Positions 170 through 55,033 of a DNA stretch of 64,000 nt are shown here, one piece after another. Location of the stretch: NCBI GenBank assembly GCA_945883545.1, contig CAMCXT010000001.1, forward strand, positions 78,864 through 142,863, in the 5' to 3' direction. The DNA comes from Chitinophaga pinensis (lineage in GTDB: Bacteria; Bacteroidota; Bacteroidia; M30B66). The notes under the pieces were generated by a model. It did not search any database. It worked only from the letters and a program-made list of their open reading frames with translations, and was not told the DNA's origin. Numbering within the stretch: position 1 is the stretch's first letter; each line of letters begins with the position of its first letter. The position numbers and the translations under genes were made by a program.

Positions 170-1216
170 ATGAAGTTTCTGCAGAAATCGCTCCCATTGC
201 TTTCAAGGCTCACGTTGATTTTTACGTTTTTGGTAATTCTTGCAGGCAGTGTGGTGCGCGTTACACAGTCGGGAATGGGTTGTCCCGATTGGCCTAAGTG
301 TTTTGGTTATTATATTCCACCTACCGATCCTGACCAAGTGAATTTCCATCCCAATCAAGCCTACACAAAAGGAATGATGGTGATAGTGAACGACACACTT
401 TGGAGAGCTAAACAGGATTTTTCTTCAACGGCTGCATTCGACCGCACATCTTGGGAAAAATATCCGAAGCACGATTATGCCGATTTCATCGTGTATCAAA
501 CTTGGGTCGAATACATCAATCGTTTGTTGGGTGCTTTGTTGGGCTTGTTTGTTCTGGCTGTAATGGTTGCTTCGCTCTTCTATTGGAAAACCGATAAGCT
601 CATTCCATTTTACAGTTTTATTCTCCTTTTTTTAACCGGCTTTCAAGCATGGTTAGGCAAATTGGTGGTAGATGGAAACCTTATTCCGCAATCGATCAGT
701 ATTCACATGCTGGCTGCGTTGTTGTTGTTGCTTTTTGTTCAACTGCTCTCGCATCGTTTAAAGCCAAAACTTGAAGCCCCTTCACGCACAACTTCTTTGG
801 CTTGGATCGCATTGGGCGCGGTGTTTTTAACTGTTGTTCAGGTGTTAATTGGAACGCAAGTGCGCGAAGAGATTGATGTTGTGGCTGAACAGCTTGGGCA
901 TCAGAGCCGCGAATTGTGGATCGGAGGCTTATCGTCGATTCTCACTTTGCACAAAGCGTTTTCGATGGTACTTGTGACGATCAATGGGATTCTGATTTAC
1001 CAGCTTTTGCAACAAAAATCAGCCTACAGAAGCAAACAAGCGAAAGTTTTAGGTGCGTTTATCGCTACCGAAATCATATTAGGGATAGTGCTTAATTACT
1101 TCAATATTCCACAAGCAGGGCAGTCGCTGCATTTGCTGGTTTCGTGCTTGATTTTTTCAGTACAATTCGGGATTTTCATTTCACTTCGTCAAAAGCGAGG
1201 CGTTATTTCCAACTAA
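170..1216 (+). CDS. ctaA: Heme A synthase (COX15/CtaA family), polytopic membrane protein
   Basis: 348-aa ORF with multiple TM segments. The N-terminal 'GMGCPDWPKCFG' Cys pair motif is characteristic of CtaA/COX15. Confidence 0.75.
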   Translation: MKFLQKSLPLLSRLTLIFTFLVILAGSVVRVTQSGMGCPDWPKCFGYYIPPTDPDQVNFHPNQAYTKGMMVIVNDTLWRAKQDFSSTAAFDRTSWEKYPKHDYADFIVYQTWVEYINRLLGALLGLFVLAVMVASLFYWKTDKLIPFYSFILLFLTGFQAWLGKLVVDGNLIPQSISIHMLAALLLLLFVQLLSHRLKPKLEAPSRTTSLAWIALGAVFLTVVQVLIGTQVREEIDVVAEQLGHQSRELWIGGLSSILTLHKAFSMVLVTINGILIYQLLQQKSAYRSKQAKVLGAFIATEIILGIVLNYFNIPQAGQSLHLLVSCLIFSVQFGIFISLRQKRGVISN

Positions 1217-7885: not shown

Positions 7886-8923
7886 TCATTGCGCTTCCAA
7901 ATATCTTGTTATTGCTCTCGGGAATGCCAACTTGTTAAGATCCGACAGATGAATTACTTCATAGTGTTCCCATTGTTTATTTGGCAGTTTTTCTCCTTCG
8001 AAATGGTAAAATCCAATGATCAATTCTCGGTGTGTGAGTAAGTGCCGAATATTGGTTTGAACCTTCTTAAGTGTCATACTTTCCGTTCCGGGGATGTTGA
8101 GAGCGTGAGGTTCCACTGGGCCATCAGTTTCGAGAAGTGGGAATTGATACAATCCCTTCCAGATGTCGTTTGTAGCTCTTCTTGAAACCAGCACACGATT
8201 ATCTAAATCTTTAAAAATGATGAAATGTAGGAAACGTGTTTTCACCTTTGTTTTTTCGCCCTTTACAGGAAAATCGTGCTGCTTCCCAGCTGAAAATGCT
8301 CCGCAATGTTGATTTAACACACATGTTTCACAACTCGGATTGCGTGGCTTGCATACGGTAGCGCCGAGTTCCATCATGGCTTGATTGAATGTTCCCGGAT
8401 CTTTCCGATCGAGCAGTAAGTTGCTGATTTCTTGGATTTTCTTTTTCCCCGGAGGGAGAAGAGGATTTTCTTGAACCTCGAAAAGTCGTGAAATAACGCG
8501 GTTTACGTTACCATCGACGGCCGCATGAGGCATACCGAAAGCAATGGAAGCTACTGCTGCCGCTGTGTAATCGCCAACGCCTTTCAAATTTCGGATGTCT
8601 TGATAGGTTTTCGGAAACTTCCCGTTGTGTTCTGCCACCACCGATTTTGCAGCCGCATGCAGGTTTCGAGCTCTTGAGTAATATCCCAATCCTTGCCAAC
8701 TTAGCATCACATCTTCTTCTGAAGCCATCGCTAAATCGGCAACCTCGGGATACTTTTCTGTGAACTTGTGGTAATAGGCTGTACCTTGATCGACCCTGGT
8801 TTGTTGCAGGATAACTTCCGACAGCCAAATGAAGTATGGATTTCGGGAATTTCTCCACGGCAGATTGCGTTTATTTTGGTTGTACCAGTCGATCAAAAGG
8901 ACCGAAATTGGGTGTTTTTCCAT
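7886..8923 (-). CDS. mutY: A/G-specific adenine DNA glycosylase MutY
   Basis: 345 aa with an HhH-GPD domain, a 4Fe-4S cluster loop 'C..C....HC.A' and a C-terminal NUDIX-like domain. Confidence 0.85.
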   Translation of the reverse strand: MEKHPISVLLIDWYNQNKRNLPWRNSRNPYFIWLSEVILQQTRVDQGTAYYHKFTEKYPEVADLAMASEEDVMLSWQGLGYYSRARNLHAAAKSVVAEHNGKFPKTYQDIRNLKGVGDYTAAAVASIAFGMPHAAVDGNVNRVISRLFEVQENPLLPPGKKKIQEISNLLLDRKDPGTFNQAMMELGATVCKPRNPSCETCVLNQHCGAFSAGKQHDFPVKGEKTKVKTRFLHFIIFKDLDNRVLVSRRATNDIWKGLYQFPLLETDGPVEPHALNIPGTESMTLKKVQTNIRHLLTHRELIIGFYHFEGEKLPNKQWEHYEVIHLSDLNKLAFPRAITRYLEAQ

Positions 8924-30117: not shown

Positions 30118-30173
30118 TTCATCGTTGATGGTTTATCTTTCATCGTTTATCTTTCATCGTTTATCGTAAATCG
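30118..30173 (+). repeat. Eight tandem heptamers (consensus tt[t/c]atc[g/t]) immediately upstream of lepA
   Basis: ATCGTT occurrences at 30121, 30142, 30156, 30163 and 30170 are spaced in multiples of 7 nt. The tract lies 54 nt upstream of the lepA ATG. Confidence 0.6.
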
Positions 30174-30226
30174 TTGAGGTCAAAACCTGCATCGCGAGAA
30201 ACATTTCAACTATCTTTGCCACCGCA

Positions 30227-47804: not shown

Positions 47805-50800
47805 ATGAGGAAACTCTACAAGGCTAGTATTATCAGAGTTTTATGGGTTTTTGCGCTGTTGCTGGCATTTTCAAATGTAGCACAGTCGCAATACTGCGCA
47901 CCGTCGTACAACAATCCATGCTTCAATCCAGGCGTTACCGACGATAACATCAACAGTTTCTCCACAGCTGGAGGAATAACCAATATTTCCAACCTCAATA
48001 CTGGTTGCAACGGAACCCAACCTGCAAATTATATCTACAATTCTGGGATGACCGTTACGGTTATGCGCGGAAGTTCCTTTACAGTTCAAGTTCAATGTTC
48101 TCCAGGAACCGGATTCGCAGCATTTGCTCAAGGGTTTAAGATTTGGGTCGATTGGGATCAAAATGGTGTGTTCGAAAACAACACTTCCAACTCTTGCGAA
48201 ACATCCTTTAACAGCGGTAGCGCAGGTTTTCAAGCTTTCAATGGAACCATCAATGTGCCAACCACCGCAACTCTTGGCATGACCAGAATGCGGGTTCGTT
48301 CAGCATTCAGTACCGTTCCAGCAACTCCTTGTAGCAACGAAAACTATGGAGAAACGGAAGACTATAATGTAATGGTAGTTGCCAATCCGACCAATCCTGG
48401 CTTAACTGTTCTTCCAGTTACTATTTGCGCTGGTCAAACAGCAGCTCTATCAGCAACTGGTGGAGGACTCATCAAATGGTATATCTCTCAAACAGCGGCA
48501 TCTTTCGTAGGCATCGGACCAAACTTCACCACACCGGTCCTCAACACTACCACAACTTATTGGGTGCAAACAGTTATCAATGGCTGCCCATCACCTAGAA
48601 TTCCAGTTACGGTTACTGTGAATCCTCCTTTCAGTGTAGCACCAACAGCCTCAGTTTCCACTGTTTGTGCTGGTGAAGATGTTACCCTAACAGGTCCTGC
48701 AGGCTATGCAAGTTACACTTGGACACCTGCAGCAGTTTTTGCTAGCAACACCGTAAATCCAGCAACTGCAACTATCGGTGCAGCAACAACTTTCACACTT
48801 ACTGTTACCGATGCTGCTGGATGCAGTGGTTCAGGAACAGTGGACGTAGGTCTTGAAGCAGCTCCTCCGCTCACAATTGTCGCAAATACGCAATCTATTT
48901 GTCCAGGAGAATCAGTTACGCTTACTGCATCTGGATCTGGCAATGGTTACAATTGGCTCGCCGCCGATGGTTTAGCAGCATCAACAACTGCTTCTGTAAC
49001 GGCTACTCCTTCAGCAACCACTACATATTCAGTTACGGCAAATTCTACTTCAGGCGCCTGTCCAGCTTCAGCCTCTATAGCTGTTACTGTAAACCCACTG
49101 CCCATCGCCGATGCTGGTTTAAACACCTCAGTTTGTATTGGTTCTAGCGTTCAACTAGTAGCTACCGGCGGAGGCACATATTCTTGGTCACCTTCAAATG
49201 GACTTTCAAACACATCCATTGCTAACCCATTAGCATCACCAAATATCTCAGGAAGCTATGTTGTTACAGTAACTTCTGCAGCTGGATGCGTTGCAACTGA
49301 TGATGTTCTTGTAACTGTAAATTCACTTCCAACCGCAAATCCAGGATCTGGTGCTGCAAATTGTTCAGGAACTGGAGCGCAACTTTCAGGATCCGGAGGA
49401 ACCACTTATTTGTGGACTCCAAATACAGGACTCAACAGCCCTAATATTTCAAACCCACTCGCCACTCCTGCTGCAACAGCCGATTACACACTAACTGTTA
49501 CCGACGCCAATGGCTGTGTTTCTCCTCCATCAGCACCAATAACGGTAACTGTTTTTAGCCAACCAGCCGCGCCAACCATCACTGCATCTGGCCCACTAAC
49601 TTTCTGCCAAGGTGGTTCAGTAGATTTATCTGTTTCTGGAGGCGTTTCTTATTTATGGTCGAATGGAGCAACTGGCGCTACAACCACAATTACTGCTTCT
49701 GGAACTTATACTGTTACACTTACCGATGCCAATGGATGTACCTCTCCAGCTTCTGCAGCTGTTGTGGTGAATGTTACGCCAGGCCCCACAGCTCCAACCA
49801 TTACACCAAACGGCCCACTTGTTTTTTGTCAAGGCGGCTCTGTACAATTGTCTTCTTCAGCATCTGCTTCATACGAATGGTCTAATGGCACTTTAACGCA
49901 AACGGCCAATATTGCCGCTTCAGGATCATATACTGTTACAATCGCCGATGCTTTGGGCTGCGAAAGCACTTCGGCGCCAATAACTGTTACAGTAAATCCA
50001 TTACCAGCTTCGCCTGTTATCACAGCACAATCACCAGCAGCATTTTGTCCTGGAGGAAGCACTACACTTCAAGCTCCATCTGCTGCATCTTGGCTTTGGA
50101 ATACTGGTGCTGTAACACAAACGATTCCTGTAAATACTACTGGCGTTTTTTCGGTAACGGTTACAGATGCAAACGGATGTACTTCGCCAGTTTCTGCAAA
50201 TTTTTCAACCACGCTTTATCCATCACCTGCAGCGCCAGTAATCACAGCAAATGGCAACACCACTTTCTGCCAAGGTGAATCTGTAACGCTATCGGTTCCT
50301 GCAGCGCAATCCTATCTTTGGAATACTGGCCAAGTCTCGCAAAGTATAACGGTAAATTCTTCAGGAACATTCTCTGTTAATACCATAGATTTCAATGGCT
50401 GTCCTGCTCCATTGTCGGCCCCAGTTGTAGTGACCATGAATCCACGTCCTGTGGCTCCAACCATTACGGCAGCTTCAACCCTTAGCTTTTGCGATGGAGA
50501 AACGGTATTCCTCAATGCAAATCCAACCACAGGCATTACTTGGAGTACAGGAGCCACAGCTGCAAATATCGAAGTAGGAGCAACTGGTGCTTACACCGCA
50601 ACTTACACCGATGCAAATGGATGTGTTTCGTATGCTTCAAATTCATTGGTAGTTAATGTAATTCCTTTGGCTAATACGCCTGTAATTACCGCAAATGGCC
50701 CAACCGATTTTTGTCAAGGAGACAGTGTTATTCTTTCGTGCAGCAATGCTCCTAGTTATCTTTGGAGCAATGGCTCAACTTCCAATTCGATCACTGCTGC

Positions 50801-51653
50801 GGCCTCTGGTATCTATTCGGTAACTACAAGTTCACAATGTCCTGCTGCAGACATGACTTCCGATATTACTGTCCAGGCTCGTCCTATTCCTGTGCCTAGT
50901 ATCGATGCCAATTTGACAAAAGATTGCCTTCCATCAACAATCAATTTTTCAGCAAGTACTTCCGGTATTGGTCCATTCTTGTTCGATTGGTCTTTTGGAG
51001 ATGGCAATTCTGCTACTTCAGCTCAACCTTCACACGAATATATTGAGGCTGGCGATTATTCAATTACACTCACCCTCACCGATGTAATTGGTTGCACAGG
51101 TTCCCAAACAATCCCGAATTTTATTGAGATTTTACCAAGGGCAAATCTTCAATTTACAATCGATCCACCTGTTACAACGCTAAGTGATCCATTGGTTACG
51201 TTTACAGGATTAACCAACAATGCATCTGCCGAATCGTGGGAAATAGAAGGCTTTGGAATTTTCAATGAAGATCAAGTTGAAATCCTTTTCGAAGATACAG
51301 GCGCCTATGTGGTTACATATTCAGCCATAACTGCCGAAGGTTGTGAGGCTTCTAAACGCGATACTGTGCTCATTTTCGATGAATTCGCGCTGTATATCCC
51401 TGGAGCTTTCTCGCCAAACGAAGACGGTTTGAATGATGTTTTCATTCCTGTAGCCTCAGGGTTTGAAGCAGAAGACTACGAATTTCAGGTTTTCAATCGC
51501 TGGGGACAAAGAATCTTCTTCACCAATCAACTCGGTGAAGGTTGGACAGGAAACGATGTTAAGCAAGATGTTTACATCTGGACGATCACCGGCAAAAGCC
51601 GCATCAACAAAGAAACTGTTGAGTACAAAGGAAGTGTGACGCTGATTAACTAA
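47805..51653 (+). CDS. Large secreted adhesin-like protein: GEVED domain, ~10 Ig-like repeats, PKD domain and gliding-motility-type (T9SS type B) C-terminal domain
   Basis: Signal peptide. 'GETEDYNVMV' GEVED. Repeated ~78-aa units with 'C.G.SV.L.A.GG..Y.W'. 'FDWSFGDGNS' PKD. C-terminal 'YIPGAFSPNEDGLNDVF'. Confidence 0.75.
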   Translation: MRKLYKASIIRVLWVFALLLAFSNVAQSQYCAPSYNNPCFNPGVTDDNINSFSTAGGITNISNLNTGCNGTQPANYIYNSGMTVTVMRGSSFTVQVQCSPGTGFAAFAQGFKIWVDWDQNGVFENNTSNSCETSFNSGSAGFQAFNGTINVPTTATLGMTRMRVRSAFSTVPATPCSNENYGETEDYNVMVVANPTNPGLTVLPVTICAGQTAALSATGGGLIKWYISQTAASFVGIGPNFTTPVLNTTTTYWVQTVINGCPSPRIPVTVTVNPPFSVAPTASVSTVCAGEDVTLTGPAGYASYTWTPAAVFASNTVNPATATIGAATTFTLTVTDAAGCSGSGTVDVGLEAAPPLTIVANTQSICPGESVTLTASGSGNGYNWLAADGLAASTTASVTATPSATTTYSVTANSTSGACPASASIAVTVNPLPIADAGLNTSVCIGSSVQLVATGGGTYSWSPSNGLSNTSIANPLASPNISGSYVVTVTSAAGCVATDDVLVTVNSLPTANPGSGAANCSGTGAQLSGSGGTTYLWTPNTGLNSPNISNPLATPAATADYTLTVTDANGCVSPPSAPITVTVFSQPAAPTITASGPLTFCQGGSVDLSVSGGVSYLWSNGATGATTTITASGTYTVTLTDANGCTSPASAAVVVNVTPGPTAPTITPNGPLVFCQGGSVQLSSSASASYEWSNGTLTQTANIAASGSYTVTIADALGCESTSAPITVTVNPLPASPVITAQSPAAFCPGGSTTLQAPSAASWLWNTGAVTQTIPVNTTGVFSVTVTDANGCTSPVSANFSTTLYPSPAAPVITANGNTTFCQGESVTLSVPAAQSYLWNTGQVSQSITVNSSGTFSVNTIDFNGCPAPLSAPVVVTMNPRPVAPTITAASTLSFCDGETVFLNANPTTGITWSTGATAANIEVGATGAYTATYTDANGCVSYASNSLVVNVIPLANTPVITANGPTDFCQGDSVILSCSNAPSYLWSNGSTSNSITAAASGIYSVTTSSQCPAADMTSDITVQARPIPVPSIDANLTKDCLPSTINFSASTSGIGPFLFDWSFGDGNSATSAQPSHEYIEAGDYSITLTLTDVIGCTGSQTIPNFIEILPRANLQFTIDPPVTTLSDPLVTFTGLTNNASAESWEIEGFGIFNEDQVEILFEDTGAYVVTYSAITAEGCEASKRDTVLIFDEFALYIPGAFSPNEDGLNDVFIPVASGFEAEDYEFQVFNRWGQRIFFTNQLGEGWTGNDVKQDVYIWTITGKSRINKETVEYKGSVTLIN

Positions 51654-51659
51654 GAAATC

Positions 51660-52058
51660 ACTCCACCACACTTAACCCAAAACTCCCATTCATCACAAAT
51701 GAATCGTCTCTCTCCCGCGGAGAGAGATAAGAGAGAGAGGTAACAGAAAGCGCGTTCAATCTCCAAAGCCACAAGCAATTCGAAAGTTCTAAACTACCTC
51801 AAATGTATCGTCTCTCTCCCTTGGAGAGAAATAAGAGAGTGAGGTAACAGAAAGCGCATTCAATCTCCAAAGCCACAATCAAATCGAAAGCTCTAAACTA
51901 CCTCCAATGTACCGTCTCTCTCCCGCGGAGAGAGATAAGAGAGAGAGGTAAATGAGAGTCCACGAGAATCAATCAGCCACACTTAACCCAAAACTCCCAT
52001 TCATCACAAATGAATCGTCTCTCTCCCGCGGAGAGAGATAAGAGAGAGAGAGGTAAAA
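51660..52058. repeat. Tandem array of four hairpin-bearing elements at 104-bp period (non-coding)
   Basis: The hairpin core 'cgtctctctccc[gcgg/ttgg]agagag ataagagag(a/t)gagg taa' recurs at 51705, 51809, 51913 and 52016. Units 1-2 are ~95% identical over 104 bp. Unit 3 diverges into a copy of the 5'-flank segment. Confidence 0.8.
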
Positions 52059-52093
52059 AAACAAAAAATCCGGCCCCTTTTCAGGAACCGGAT
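52055..52093 (-). terminator. Rho-independent terminator for the minus-strand T9SS cargo gene (possibly bidirectional)
   Basis: On the minus strand, the hairpin atccgg(N14)ccggat is followed by a U-run, 24 nt downstream of the stop at 52117. Confidence 0.55.
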
Positions 52094-52116
52094 TTTCATT
52101 GGTTGTTGTTGAAGAA

Positions 52117-54027
52117 TTAGAGTTTAACCGCTCTTAAAGTTTGATTGCTGTTTGAAGAGCGTACGCTGATCAAGTAAGTTCCAGCTTTAAGATCGCTACC
52201 GTTAATCATGTAACGGCTAGAGTTATTTGCATTTACTGTTACTGTTTCGATGCTCACGGTTTGGCCTACTGTGTTTACTACAGTAATTTCAAACTTCTCA
52301 TCTGTGCTGCTAGTAGTAAGGTTTACCGAAAGCTCGCTGTTGAAAGGGTTCGGAGCGATGGTGATTTCAGTAACTTCATCAGGAGTTGAAGTGTTGTCTG
52401 CAAAACGTGCTGCTGGAGCTGAACAACCAGGCTGATCTACAATCACAGCATCAACATCGAATCCATCTGCACTTCCTGGGAATCTTGTGCTGCTTGTTGC
52501 AGATGCATCAGTGATACGAAGGTAAGAGAAGTAAGCAAGACCTGCAGATGAAACATCGATCGATTCGTCAAGACAAGCTTCGTCTTCAATTGCGAACCAG
52601 TTGATATTGTCTAATGAAATCTCAAGACGAGCAGTTTCAGGATAGTTGTTGCAAGTTGGGTTACCGTAAGATGTTTCAACAATCGTGACATCAGTTCCAG
52701 TTTTGTCGAATACTAGGTAATCGAAGCTTAAGATAATCTGACCACCAAAACCAAGGCTTACAAAGTTTACTTCATCTGTTCCTTGTGGAGCACCAAGTGC
52801 ATTGTCTGCATTGCTACGTGATGTTGGTACTGCATTGCCATTCTTCATGTCCCCTTGTGTGAAATCTTCAACAGCTGTAGCAAATTGGTTGCTCAAAGCT
52901 GCTGGTACTGGGTTCAATTCTTCACCATGCAAACAAACAACACCATCTAAATCATAACCGTCAGCCAATCCACCACCGAAAGGGTGAGAAATATCAGAGA
53001 TATCTTGAAGCTTCACATATTGAATCCAACCAAGTGTCTTGAAATCGAAGAAGGTGTTCTGACATCCATCGCCCAACCAAATCCAGTTGCAACCATCTTG
53101 CGAACCAAATGCACGAATCTTTTCAGGGTAACGGTTGCAGTTTCCTGAGTAGTTTCCAAATGTTGTTTCAACTACATAAAGATCATCTCCGTCTCCATTG
53201 TGAATAGGGTAAGCAAATTTCAAGGTAACAGCACCACCAAATCCTAGCGACAAGAAATTGTAGTTCGAAGTAGCTACATCACTGTTTTCTGGCATACCCA
53301 AAGCATTTGCAGTGTTTAAACGTGCTGGGTCAATTGGTGTGAGTAAATCGTTCGTAGTTCCAGGAGTAAAGTTGATCACTTCAGTTGCAACACAAGCTGC
53401 AGGTGTTACAGGCAAGGAATCTACTGGAGTTGTAGTTGTGTCGTTGTCAGTTACATCGTCATTGTCATCATCATCGCTATCGTCGTTGTCATCATTGTCG
53501 TCATCGTTATCGTCATTGTCATCATCATCGCTATCGTCGTTGTCATCATTGTCGTCATCGTTATCGCTGTCATCATTGTCATCATCATTATCGCTGTCAT
53601 CATTGTCATCATCATCGCTATCGTCGTTGTCATCATTGTCGTCATCGTTTTCGCTGTCGTCATTGTCATCATCATCGCTATCGTCATTGTCGTCATCGTT
53701 ATCGCTGTCATCATTGTCATCATCATCACTATCGTCGTTGTCATCATCGTCACTTTCCTCGTCATCATCGTTGCTTTGAGTGCAAGCGCCAAGAACATCA
53801 CCGTGTCCTAAATGTGCATTCACTGCTGCAGGTGCTACATAAATCGTAATGTAGCTTCCGTTTCCTGTTTGGTGACAAATTGCAACTGTATTGTTGCCAT
53901 TTCCTTGCCCTGGAGTTCTCTGTGATGATTCTTCAGTACGAACATTCACGCGGTTGTGCTGAGCGCCCAAGTTATTTACCAATGATAGGATCATCAGAAT
54001 CAAAAGTGTTGCGACTTTTTTTAGCAT
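52117..54027 (-). CDS. Secreted protein with ~130-aa poly-Asp/Asn/Ser acidic tract, two tandem ~95-aa beta domains and T9SS type-A C-terminal sorting domain
   Basis: Signal peptide, 'DDDNDDSDDDD...' low-complexity tract, and duplicated segments 'LGMPENSD..SLGFGGAV...' and 'LGAPQGTDE..SLGFGGQI...'. The C-terminus 'ITIAPNPF...' is a Por-type tail. Confidence 0.65.
   Translation of the reverse strand: MLKKVATLLILMILSLVNNLGAQHNRVNVRTEESSQRTPGQGNGNNTVAICHQTGNGSYITIYVAPAAVNAHLGHGDVLGACTQSNDDDEESDDDDNDDSDDDDNDDSDNDDDNDDSDDDDNDDSENDDDNDDNDDSDDDDNDDSDNDDDNDDSDNDDDNDDNDDSDDDDNDDNDDDNDDNDDSDDDDNDDVTDNDTTTTPVDSLPVTPAACVATEVINFTPGTTNDLLTPIDPARLNTANALGMPENSDVATSNYNFLSLGFGGAVTLKFAYPIHNGDGDDLYVVETTFGNYSGNCNRYPEKIRAFGSQDGCNWIWLGDGCQNTFFDFKTLGWIQYVKLQDISDISHPFGGGLADGYDLDGVVCLHGEELNPVPAALSNQFATAVEDFTQGDMKNGNAVPTSRSNADNALGAPQGTDEVNFVSLGFGGQIILSFDYLVFDKTGTDVTIVETSYGNPTCNNYPETARLEISLDNINWFAIEDEACLDESIDVSSAGLAYFSYLRITDASATSSTRFPGSADGFDVDAVIVDQPGCSAPAARFADNTSTPDEVTEITIAPNPFNSELSVNLTTSSTDEKFEITVVNTVGQTVSIETVTVNANNSSRYMINGSDLKAGTYLISVRSSNSNQTLRAVKL
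53441..53775. repeat. Coding-sequence microsatellite-like tandem repeat (GAT/GAC-rich, period ~18/60 nt) encoding the poly-D/N/S tract
   Basis: Iterated 'gtcatcatcatcgctatcgtcgttgtcatcattgtcgtcatcgttatcg'-type units are visible in the raw sequence. All three other-frame ORFs here are artefacts of this repeat. Confidence 0.8.
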
Positions 54028-54884: not shown

Positions 54885-54953
54885 AAATCCAAACAACAAC
54901 CAGCAAAACGATTAAATAAGAAAGGCCGCCAATTTCTTGACAGCCTTTTCTTG

Positions 54954-55033
54954 TACCCGGAGCCGGAGTCGAACCGGCACGGTTTCCCACAGGTGTTTGA
55001 GACCAGCGCGTCTACCAATTCCGCCATCCGGGC
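54954..55033 (-). tRNA. tRNA-Leu (anticodon CAA), type II with long variable arm
   Basis: The minus-strand sequence 'gcccggatggcggaattggtagacgcgctggtCTCAAACacctg...gccggttcgactccggctccgggta' has an acceptor stem that pairs, a D-loop 'AATTGGTAGA', a T-loop 'GGTTCGACTCC', and an anticodon loop 'cuCAAac'. There is one U-U mismatch in the anticodon stem. Confidence 0.75.

Follow-up and report, generated by a model that had tools for sequence, protein, structure and literature searches.

A tandem array of putative intrastrand-triplex repeats resembling BoxC/PIT elements in an intergenic spacer of Bacteroidota

Intrastrand-triplex repeats and the four-module array

The closest described counterparts of the repeat studied here are the BoxC elements of Escherichia coli, which are the same as the PIT elements and as TMECO, a class II (purine-motif) intrastrand triplex (Holder et al. 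2015, NAR 43:10126, PMC4666352). In this class, a 5' pyrimidine stem, a loop, a purine stem, a second loop, and a 3' reverse-Hoogsteen stem follow one another on a single strand; the ITxF limits are stems of 6 to 15 nucleotides (nt), loops of 1 to 6 nt, and no more than one mismatched triad, with C-G·G, T-A·A, and T-A·T allowed (PMC4666352). TMECO has the consensus CCCTCNCCC-N3-6-GGGNGAGGG-N3-GGGNGAGGG, with conserved stems and variable loops. It occurs in 23 copies in E. coli MG1655 and in 3610 copies in 262 proteobacterial genomes, shows neither strand bias nor association with known mobile elements, and its loci vary significantly more from one E. coli strain to another than control loci do (PMC4666352). 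Here, we describe a module of about 34 nt that is repeated four times in a 64,000-nt stretch of contig CAMCXT010000001.1 (Chitinophaga pinensis assembly GCA_945883545.1), which we call the window. The array occupies a 463-bp spacer (positions 51654 to 52116) that is exactly the interval between the stop codons of two convergent genes. BoxC/PIT elements, which are G/C-rich, were reportedly also described by Bachellier in the 1990s and by Hoyne and Maher in 2000 and 2002, from Proteobacteria and Cyanobacteria. Whether intrastrand triplexes form and matter in bacteria has been a question since the PIT/BoxC papers. The E. coli motif folds in vitro, but neither a function nor an in vivo structure was found: the isolated TMECO single strand forms a stable triplex by circular dichroism (CD) and nuclear magnetic resonance (NMR) (PMC4666352). 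Bacteroidetes, direct tandem arrays, and intragenic copies go unmentioned in that paper, and our literature searches for Bacteroidetes REP-like repeats and for module sequence strings returned nothing specific, nor anything newer than 2015 on the triplex class.

The module consists of a pyrimidine tract Y (TCTCTCTCC), a loop of 3 nt, a purine tract R1 (GGAGAGAGA), the linker TAAG, and a second purine tract R2 (AGAGAGAGG) that mirrors R1. As a single DNA strand of 34 to 36 nt it reads d(TCTCTCTCCCGCGGAGAGAGATAAGAGAGAGAGG), in which R1, the linker, and R2 make up a perfect 22-nt homopurine mirror repeat. When R2 is folded back antiparallel to R1, G faces G and A faces A, the arrangement expected of a purine-motif triple helix built from C-G·G, T-A·A, and T-A·T triads. 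A preliminary description of the locus had recognized a hairpin followed by a purine tract but overlooked the mirror relation of that tract to the 3' stem arm; it also gave the stem as 8 bp, whereas the actual stem (TCTCTCTCC/GGAGAGAGA) has 9 bp.

All four modules lie on the plus strand. Module 1 (51707 to 51740) has Y at 51707 to 51715, the loop cgc, R1 at 51719 to 51727, the loop taag, and R2 at 51732 to 51740. In an ITxF-style triad scan (9-nt stems, loop 1 of 3 to 6 nt, loop 2 of 1 to 6 nt), canonical triads were found at 9/9 positions in modules 1, 3 (51915 to 51948), and 4 (52018 to 52053) and at 8/9 in module 2 (51811 to 51844). No other site on either strand of the window had at least 8/9 triads, and 30 first-order Markov simulations of the 64 kb yielded 0.03 sites of this kind on average. 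The modules fall under the class II (purine-motif) intrastrand-triplex definition of ITxF, with loops of 3 and of 4 to 6 nt. The hairpin core occurs four times in the window (51708, 51812, 51916, and 52019; chance expectation, 0), and neither a pattern search nor a covariance model with its filters off found a fifth core anywhere in it. Among all copies that we collected, the loops are freely variable (cgc, cgt, tgt, agt, ttt, ctt, ttc, ttg, gcac, and others) and the stems are conserved, and R2 changes its length in 2-nt steps.

Module 2 is slightly degraded. Its first loop is ctt, its R1 (GGAGAGAAA) carries a C·A mismatch, and its R2 (AGAGTGAGG) has a T·A-T centre triad. The differences in this unit had been put forward as compensatory changes that preserve the stem, which does not hold: the change from cgc to ctt falls in the loop, the G-to-A change in the 3' arm creates the mismatch, and the predicted DNA hairpin declines from 9 bp and -8.0 kcal/mol in an intact module to 7 bp and -5.2 kcal/mol, with triads going from 9/9 to 8/9. 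A SacII site (CCGCGG) said to mark the hairpin is present in units 1, 3, and 4. Module 4, which had been taken for a hairpin alone, keeps the purine tract, and its R2 is even longer by one GA.

We put the probability at roughly 60% that this array arose by tandem amplification of a Bacteroidota DNA repeat of the BoxC/PIT kind, an intrastrand-triplex repeat under selection for its structure. On this reading, Y would pair with R1 in a 9-bp hairpin whenever replication, repair, or transcription leaves the plus strand single-stranded, and R2 would fold back antiparallel to R1 and bind within the major groove by way of G·G-C, A·A-T, and T·A-T triads, presumably also in vivo. The conserved property would be this three-stranded fold, neither a transcript nor a peptide. 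The identical modules would be substrates for slippage or unequal recombination by which the array gains and loses units of about 104 nt, and the 104-bp spacing itself would carry no meaning.

The module belongs to the known intrastrand-triplex class but is not TMECO itself. Both have a 9-nt pyrimidine arm, a loop of 3 to 6 nt, a 9-nt purine arm, a loop of 3 to 4 nt, and a 9-nt mirroring purine tract; in both, the centre triad is often T-A·T and the stems are conserved while the loops vary. Both are multicopy, follow no strand rule, and sit at loci that vary between strains, and the G-rich Chitinophagaceae variants (CCCCTCTCC/GGAGAGGGG/GGGGTGAGG) differ from TMECO (CCCTCTCCC/GGGAGAGGG/GGGTGAGGG) in little beyond a shift of 1 nt. 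The Bacteroidota module nevertheless fails the strict consensus, which matched nowhere in the window and at none of the first 20 loci that we fetched; at the E. coli locus after hrpB, which we checked, the expected inverted TMECO pair was present. Further, Bacteroidota stems alternate A and G whereas TMECO stems are G-rich, and the module forms direct tandem arrays with related spacers of about 70 nt whereas the E. coli copies are all either single or arranged as inverted pairs. In Bacteroidota, intergenic copies lie at gene 3' ends, in contrast to the more frequent position of E. coli copies upstream of open reading frames (ORFs), and some Bacteroidota copies lie in frame within trpB and a GH3 gene, whereas E. 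coli copies are reported to be always intergenic. We regard the family as low-copy, dispersed, and insertion-prone, and as analogous, perhaps related, to BoxC/PIT/TMECO. The earlier verdict that the repeat matches no nameable family thus stands within Bacteroidota but not for bacteria at large. The triplex class is already known; new here are the covariation of the triads, the copies inside genes, and the polymorphism of the array between strains, which make in vivo relevance a testable matter. The family adds a second phylum, in which the stem sequences differ and the geometry is the same.

Covariation across the three tracts

Divergent copies reach 8 to 9 of 9 triads each through coordinated changes in Y, R1, and R2. 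Read on the purine strand (Y, R1, and R2 in that order; the labels L001 to L019 are ours), these are CCCCTCTCC, GGAGAGGGG, and GGGGTGAGG at L008:80-113 and L016; CCCTTCTCC, GGAGAAGGG, and GGGATGAGG within trpB in L013; TCCTTCTCC, GGAGAAGGA, and AGGATGAGG at L013:884-917; TCCCTCTGC, GGAGAGGGA, and AGGGTGAGG in L014; and TCCCTCTCC, AGAGAGGGA, and AGGGAGAGG in L019. Compared with the GA-type copies, positions 6, 7, and 9 show exchanges of entire triads, T-A·A for C-G·G or the reverse. Canonical triads make up 110 of the 126 in 14 distinct rows, and none of 5000 column shuffles of the third tract reached this value (mean, 100.4; maximum, 109). Compatibility is 0.87 in register and falls to 0.21 to 0.22 when the third strand is slid by one position in either direction; with the third tract in parallel polarity, 79 of 126 triads are canonical. 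The hairpin itself is 92.9% paired over the same rows, with three pairs changed on both sides and a covariation score of 0.203 against 0.126 for shuffled alignments (0/500 as high). R2 has T at its centre, giving a T·A-T triad, in 5 of the 14 rows, one of which is window unit 2.

Templated copying yields direct or inverted repeats, not mirror repeats, so covariation in the mirror register would point to selection on the fold. The pattern suggests that the fold under selection is one in which R2 reads R1 through its Hoogsteen face, and the substitutions across three tracts amount to a natural mutagenesis experiment that favors it. Selection on structure had already been proposed for the window array; compensation does exist, at three stem pairs and only in distant copies, and the argument drawn from unit 2 was wrong.

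Several points weigh against the triplex reading. The divergent copies represent few independent lineages: there are about four or five divergent types of stem, of which several come from a single trpB site. In addition, the alignment registers were chosen as the best scoring ones. The column shuffles ignore relatedness, and kin sequences can beat shuffles without any real constraint. Since a (GA)n tract is almost its own mirror image, the canonical copies, among them the four modules of the window, hardly inform on the register, and the divergent copies are therefore the informative ones. The triplex predicted for this sequence draws its support from three-way covariation. In E. coli, no stable TMECO triplex was detected by in vivo dimethyl sulfate footprinting or by CD and NMR on the duplex (PMC4666352).

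The divergent copies also bear on two other ways of folding the module. In one, the unit is a two-state Watson-Crick switch or a protein-binding GA-rich array, with Y pairing with R1 or R2 (of its own or a neighboring unit) and thereby exposing GGAG/GAGG for a regulator or for translation of a small ORF (MNRLSPAERDKRERG). Canonical GA-type copies do pair Y with R2 at 8 of 9 positions, nearly as well as Y with R1, a GCC...GGC extension in L011 lengthens the Y:R2 helix to 11 bp, and units in the window contain ATG...TAA mini-ORFs. However, we consider this very improbable: the Y:R2 helix drops to 5 to 6 of 9 in the divergent copies, in which the mirror register keeps 8 to 9 and the parallel register 6 to 7; an outer ATC/GGT helix is not kept across copies; and the 2-nt steps of R2, together with valS-locus copies that have neither the ATG nor the stop codon, mean that no reading frame is conserved. 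The mini-ORF MNRLSPAERDKRERG (with its stop codon) was rejected on the latter grounds, and the alternative Y:R2 helix with the outer ATC/GGT helix was rejected as being lost in divergent copies. ORFs read through the module had 0 matches among 5.8 billion predicted proteins. The other fold is H-DNA, which the 22-nt mirror R1-TAAG-R2 could in principle form in a supercoiled duplex. H-DNA needs no upstream complementary arm, though, whereas the Y arm of the module covaries with R1 on the same strand, which points to a fold within a single strand rather than to H-DNA.

Whether that strand is DNA or RNA can be approached through the triads. Purine-motif triplexes form in DNA and not in RNA, according to literature cited in PMC4666352. 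The T·A-T triad is canonical only in the purine (antiparallel) motif, as the complementary strand would have an A·A-T mismatch in the pyrimidine motif, and T at the centre of the third tract is also the state of E. coli TMECO (PMC4666352). The centre-T triad, the mixed orientation of copies, and the copies inside genes (see below) together favor single-stranded DNA as the folding species, and the module would thus fold as DNA rather than RNA. On the opposite side, a pyrimidine-motif triplex, a type that RNA can adopt, could form on the complementary strand.

Dispersal, intragenic copies, and array length

When species-representative genomes were scanned for the exact pattern, the module turned up on seven contigs of three Bacteroidota metagenome-assembled genomes (MAGs). 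The same kind of scan found it on five further metagenome contigs and gave 0 matches among IMG/VR viral contigs, on which ground a viral origin was rejected. A covariance model returned 31 strong copies at loci L001 to L012. The hosts are Flavobacteriales and Chitinophagaceae. The search in related genomes that had been proposed at the outset therefore shows a unit that is dispersed over loci and genomes rather than locus specific, in line with the idea of a REP-like repeat family. In every array found, all copies are direct and in the same orientation, with periods of about 100 to 150 bp. Two, two, and five modules follow valS (L002, L009, and L006, respectively; period of ~105 to 108 nt), several modules, partly masked by N, follow a cytochrome c gene (L005 and L010; 139 to 148 nt), and three modules plus a truncated copy follow a tag-like gene (L007; 100 to 113 nt). 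Since the period differs between loci, 104 bp is not a conserved property. Different loci have in common only the ~34-nt module and a few flanking bases, including conserved short 5' flanks (TCG, CCG, or GCC); their spacers are unrelated.

Every intergenic copy abuts at least one gene 3' end, and divergent promoter regions are free of copies. At the window locus, valS, tag, L008:7995, and L012, the purine strand is sense to the upstream gene. It is antisense to both neighbors at the cytochrome c locus (L005/L010) and antisense directly after trpB in L013. This mixed placement means that the module follows no strand rule. It also bears on an RNA-level explanation, in which the array lies in the 3' untranslated region (UTR) of the upstream gene, a cargo of the type IX secretion system (T9SS), and acts as an exonuclease barrier, a processing or termination signal, a protein site, or a tandem small RNA (sRNA). 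The array does lie between a stop codon and a terminator-like hairpin in the sense orientation, a like arrangement recurs at the valS and tag-like loci, and the hairpin has compensatory changes. Moreover, the whole spacer folds better than shuffled sequences (z of -5.2 on the plus strand and -4.0 on the minus strand), and there are hints of extra spacer conservation. Nonetheless, we find this explanation unlikely, although not negligibly so: at the cytochrome c locus, modules run antisense to the genes on both sides, those in and behind trpB are also antisense, and the one within GH3 is sense; different loci have unrelated spacers; no Rfam family matches; and a hairpin-only model leaves the third tract in mirror register and the recurrent T unexplained. 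E. coli PIT elements were without promoter or terminator activity (Hoyne and Maher 2002, as cited in PMC4666352). For an array of sRNA genes, an early suggestion, we found no support, with modules on either strand relative to genes and in frame inside trpB and GH3. Bacteroidota intergenic arrays of this module should be annotated neither as sRNAs nor as CRISPR-like.

Two conserved genes contain the module in frame. In L011, it lies antisense within trpB and encodes SLSLLSLSEGERG. Among Chitinophagaceae TrpB homologs (76 to 83% protein identity; DNA of six alleles retrieved), the segment is present in P0001 to P0006 and P0010 and absent from P0007, P0011, P0052, P0014, and P0019; P0020 and P0120 are intermediate. 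Between L011 and L019, position 7 of the trpB copy was changed via three substitutions, of which two are synonymous and one replaces Arg with Gly. In L008, the module lies sense within a GH3 β-glucosidase gene and encodes IPPSPHGEGQGVRPE, and exactly these 11 module-encoded residues are missing from 11/11 of the closest GH3 homologs (55 to 75% identity). Filled and empty alleles of both genes imply that the module can enter, or be lost from, conserved genes. Neither terminal inverted repeats nor a target-site duplication were evident when the filled trpB allele L016 was compared with the empty L015 or at the GH3 site; the alleles are ~75 to 80% identical, which leaves the insertion boundaries imprecise. 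The Rickettsia palindromic elements (RPE) are similar in that they lie in frame in conserved genes and add a peptide in a tolerant loop, as the module does here in trpB and GH3, but they are 100 to 150 bp long, unrelated in sequence, without triplex architecture, and from another phylum.

The two genomic contexts held further sequences of note. In L013, a second module (884 to 917, minus strand) directly follows the stop codon of trpB, at a distance of 190 nt from the copy inside the gene. Both L013 copies have an unusual T-A·A triad at position 6, and a full triad switch distinguishes them at position 9; the shared odd triad implies that stem subtypes are genome specific. In L008, a stretch at 8060 to 8170 (plus strand) is a possible expanded relative of the module, with a Y-like tract (CTTCTCCG), an R1-like tract (CGGAGGGG), a structured insert of ~60 nt between them, and then GATAAGAGGATGAGG, in which the ATG is the start of a NusG/UpxY-like gene. 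It fits about 5 to 6 of 9 triads by eye, and its homology to the module is uncertain.

Insertion into genes raises the question of whether the module is a nonautonomous mobile element (REP/RAYT-, IS200/IS605-, or MITE-like), with the hairpin and purine tract as putative transposase signals and the triplex symmetry either incidental or part of recognition. This overlaps with the triplex reading. In its favor, stems are near-identical across two orders and in genomes with only 80 to 87% identity between flanking genes, trpB and GH3 show insertion polymorphism, subtypes are genome specific (as in the two L013 copies sharing the T-A·A triad at position 6), short 5' flanks are conserved, and a repeat resembling an insertion sequence (IS) abuts half modules at two loci of D1_MAG_00037. 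On the other hand, there are no terminal inverted repeats beyond the hairpin, target-site duplication is not evident in L015 (empty) versus L016 (filled), with imprecise insertion boundaries, the copies are direct rather than REPIN-like inverted pairs, and the copy number per genome looks low. Covariation in the mirror register would not be expected from sequence-specific protein contacts, and TMECO lacks an association with mobile elements (PMC4666352). We judge a mobile element of this kind to be quite unlikely.

As to the IS-like repeat, a sequence of ~117 nt is found in D1_MAG_00037 at L003:1-117 (plus strand) and L004:4322-4438 (minus strand), in each case abutting a half module that keeps the end of R1, loop 2, and R2 and has lost the Y arm; one of the contigs begins there. 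The sequence has the appearance of an IS-like repeat that was inserted into triplex modules or that ends at them, which suggests that modules can be insertion targets, as REPs are. The resemblance to REP/BIME repeats goes further: both are short, palindromic, dispersed, structure-conserved, and often grouped in mosaic arrays, and both prefer post-gene and convergent spaces and are hot spots of rearrangement and IS insertion. In contrast to REPs and REPINs, the module shows no alternation of orientation and no REPIN doublets, being in the same orientation in every array; it has a conserved third tract in mirror register and a much lower copy number; and while RAYT is known for REPINs, none is known for the module, for which no transposase search was made.

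Array length varies between close relatives, as the comparison of copy numbers recommended in the preliminary description bears out. Through the exact sequence of the upstream 1282-amino-acid protein, we found the ENA metagenome contig k141_273172 (L018), which is 100% identical to the window over 7143 nt, up to position 51947 and through module 3. L018 has three modules, one 103-nt unit fewer than the window, and the junction lies inside a module. The repeat shared at this junction is only about 36 nt, so an assembly collapse at k=141 is unlikely. Downstream of the array, L018 and the window are ~97.5% identical, the identity breaking at the array (51947/51948 versus L018 position 7143), and most of the differences fall in the downstream gene (52117 to 54027). 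Two origins of the break are conceivable, namely, recombination at this point or an assembler that changed strains at the repeat. At the orthologous site of MAG EUL_048 (L001), the flanks are 87% identical, and there are at least seven modules, with differently ordered B and C+A units. Arrays of three (L018), four (window), and at least seven (L001) modules fit slippage or unequal recombination between identical modules, a process that yields a regular period without the 104-bp spacing having any meaning. Module arrays are likely sites of strain-level assembly breaks. The polymorphisms are themselves testable: arrays of three, four, and at least seven units, the identity break at the array, and the filled and empty trpB and GH3 alleles.

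The spacers show that the array is not CRISPR, as had been concluded. Regularly spaced, partly palindromic direct repeats are a feature of CRISPR arrays as well, but the spacers here are ~70 nt long and mutual copies (91% identity for units 1 and 2; 96% for the leader versus the unit 3 spacer), and the repeat has a purine tail. A CRISPR array was rejected because the spacers are repeated rather than unique. Spacers of the same type at the window locus are 84 to 97% identical, compared with 87% for the coding flank. At the valS locus, the arrays with their spacers (L002:5234-5442 versus L006) are 90% identical between species, or ~86% without the modules, versus 80% for the valS coding sequence, which hints that more than the triplex core is constrained there. 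The valS-locus spacers share a 3' half of the form TACGAnAATTGG…GAGCTGAATCG.

To the points against the triplex reading given above, the arrays and their positions add two. The spacers may be somewhat constrained, which the triplex model leaves unexplained and a function of the whole unit would fit. Most intergenic copies lie at gene 3' ends, many of them sense to the upstream gene, so that a 3'-UTR role also fits; the preference could reflect such a role or mere positional tolerance. As for the instability of the array, a strain switch of the assembler at the repeat could account for the L018 difference. On balance, the module probably serves no dedicated host function and would merely be tolerated at gene 3' ends. 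A broader proposal, which we hold to be possible but doubtful, is that intrastrand triplex modules are a single cross-phylum class of self-propagating DNA (Proteobacteria, Cyanobacteria, and Bacteroidota) that spreads and is retained by virtue of the three-stranded fold of single-stranded DNA, inserts in a structure-dependent manner, including into genes, and drives local recombination and copy-number change. If this were true, the persistence of triad covariation in translated copies (trpB and GH3) would for the first time show from evolution that such triplexes arise in living cells and are of consequence there.

Organization of the window locus and other sequence features

The gene upstream of the array (47805 to 51653, plus strand) encodes a T9SS type B cargo protein of 1282 amino acids with GEVED, Ig_7, PKD, and CHU_C domains, and the convergent gene downstream (52117 to 54027, minus strand) encodes a T9SS type A cargo protein of 636 amino acids with a Por_Secre_tail domain and an internal Asp/Asn/Ser repeat (domains from Pfam). 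The CHU_C and Por_Secre_tail domains bear out the initial assignment of both convergent neighbors to T9SS cargo. The reported regularity of the array was likewise reproduced: Tandem Repeats Finder gave a 104-bp period over 51696 to 52050 (3.4 copies), and a repeat search gave start-to-start spacings of 104, 104, and 103 for the four copies.

The array is a mosaic in the order leader A - H - B - H - B - H - (C+A) - H, with H for the module. The upstream stop codon is followed by 53 nt of leader spacer (type A; 51654 to 51706, plus strand), the 3' end of which is the conserved 5' flank AATGAATCG; a 96% identical repeat of the leader precedes module 4. Modules 1 and 2 are separated by a type B spacer of 70 nt (51741 to 51810, plus strand) and modules 2 and 3 by a second one, also of 70 nt (51845 to 51914, plus strand), that is 96 to 97% identical to its type B counterparts at the orthologous site of MAG EUL_048. 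Over 104 nt, units 1 and 2 have 91% of positions in common, close to the near-identity first noted. The type C+A spacer before module 4 (51949 to 52017, plus strand) has 69 nt and, with one module copy, makes up the 103-nt unit missing from the otherwise identical contig L018. The tail of unit 3 had been recognized as a copy of the 5' flank, and indeed positions 51967 to 52050, which precede and include hairpin 4, are 96% identical to 51656 to 51739, the 5' flank with hairpin 1. A G+C-rich inverted repeat with A-run and T-run flanks, found by an inverted-repeat search at 52064 to 52097, closes the spacer 20 nt from the downstream stop codon and looks like a bidirectional intrinsic terminator.

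In Rfam, no family matched the spacer, as a proposed check of the array region was to reveal, and a permissive scan gave only chance-level hits (E of >0.6). GC skew of the window was uninformative on replication direction. On the minus strand, TACATTTG and TACATTGG stand beside modules 2 and 3 (51800 to 51812 and 51904 to 51916), and TACATTTG beside module 2 matches TAnnTTTG, the Bacteroidetes -7 promoter consensus. A promoter at these sites was rejected, as TACATTTG is absent at other loci and a sigma-70 scan found none.

The sole match in the window at the Rfam gathering score is a tRNA-Leu(CAA) gene at 54953 to 55033 on the minus strand. Within the downstream cargo gene, positions 53455 to 53773 (minus strand) are occupied by an extended, imperfect tandem repeat (periods, 6, 24, 51, and 87 nt), which encodes the Asp/Asn/Ser-rich, acidic, low-complexity tract (…DDDDNDDSDNDDDNDDSDDDD…) of the Por_Secre_tail protein. 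Elsewhere in the window, a perfect 14-nt tandem repeat (GTTTATCTTTCATC; 2.5 copies) at 30131 to 30165 lies inside a repeat with a 21-nt period (30122 to 30175).

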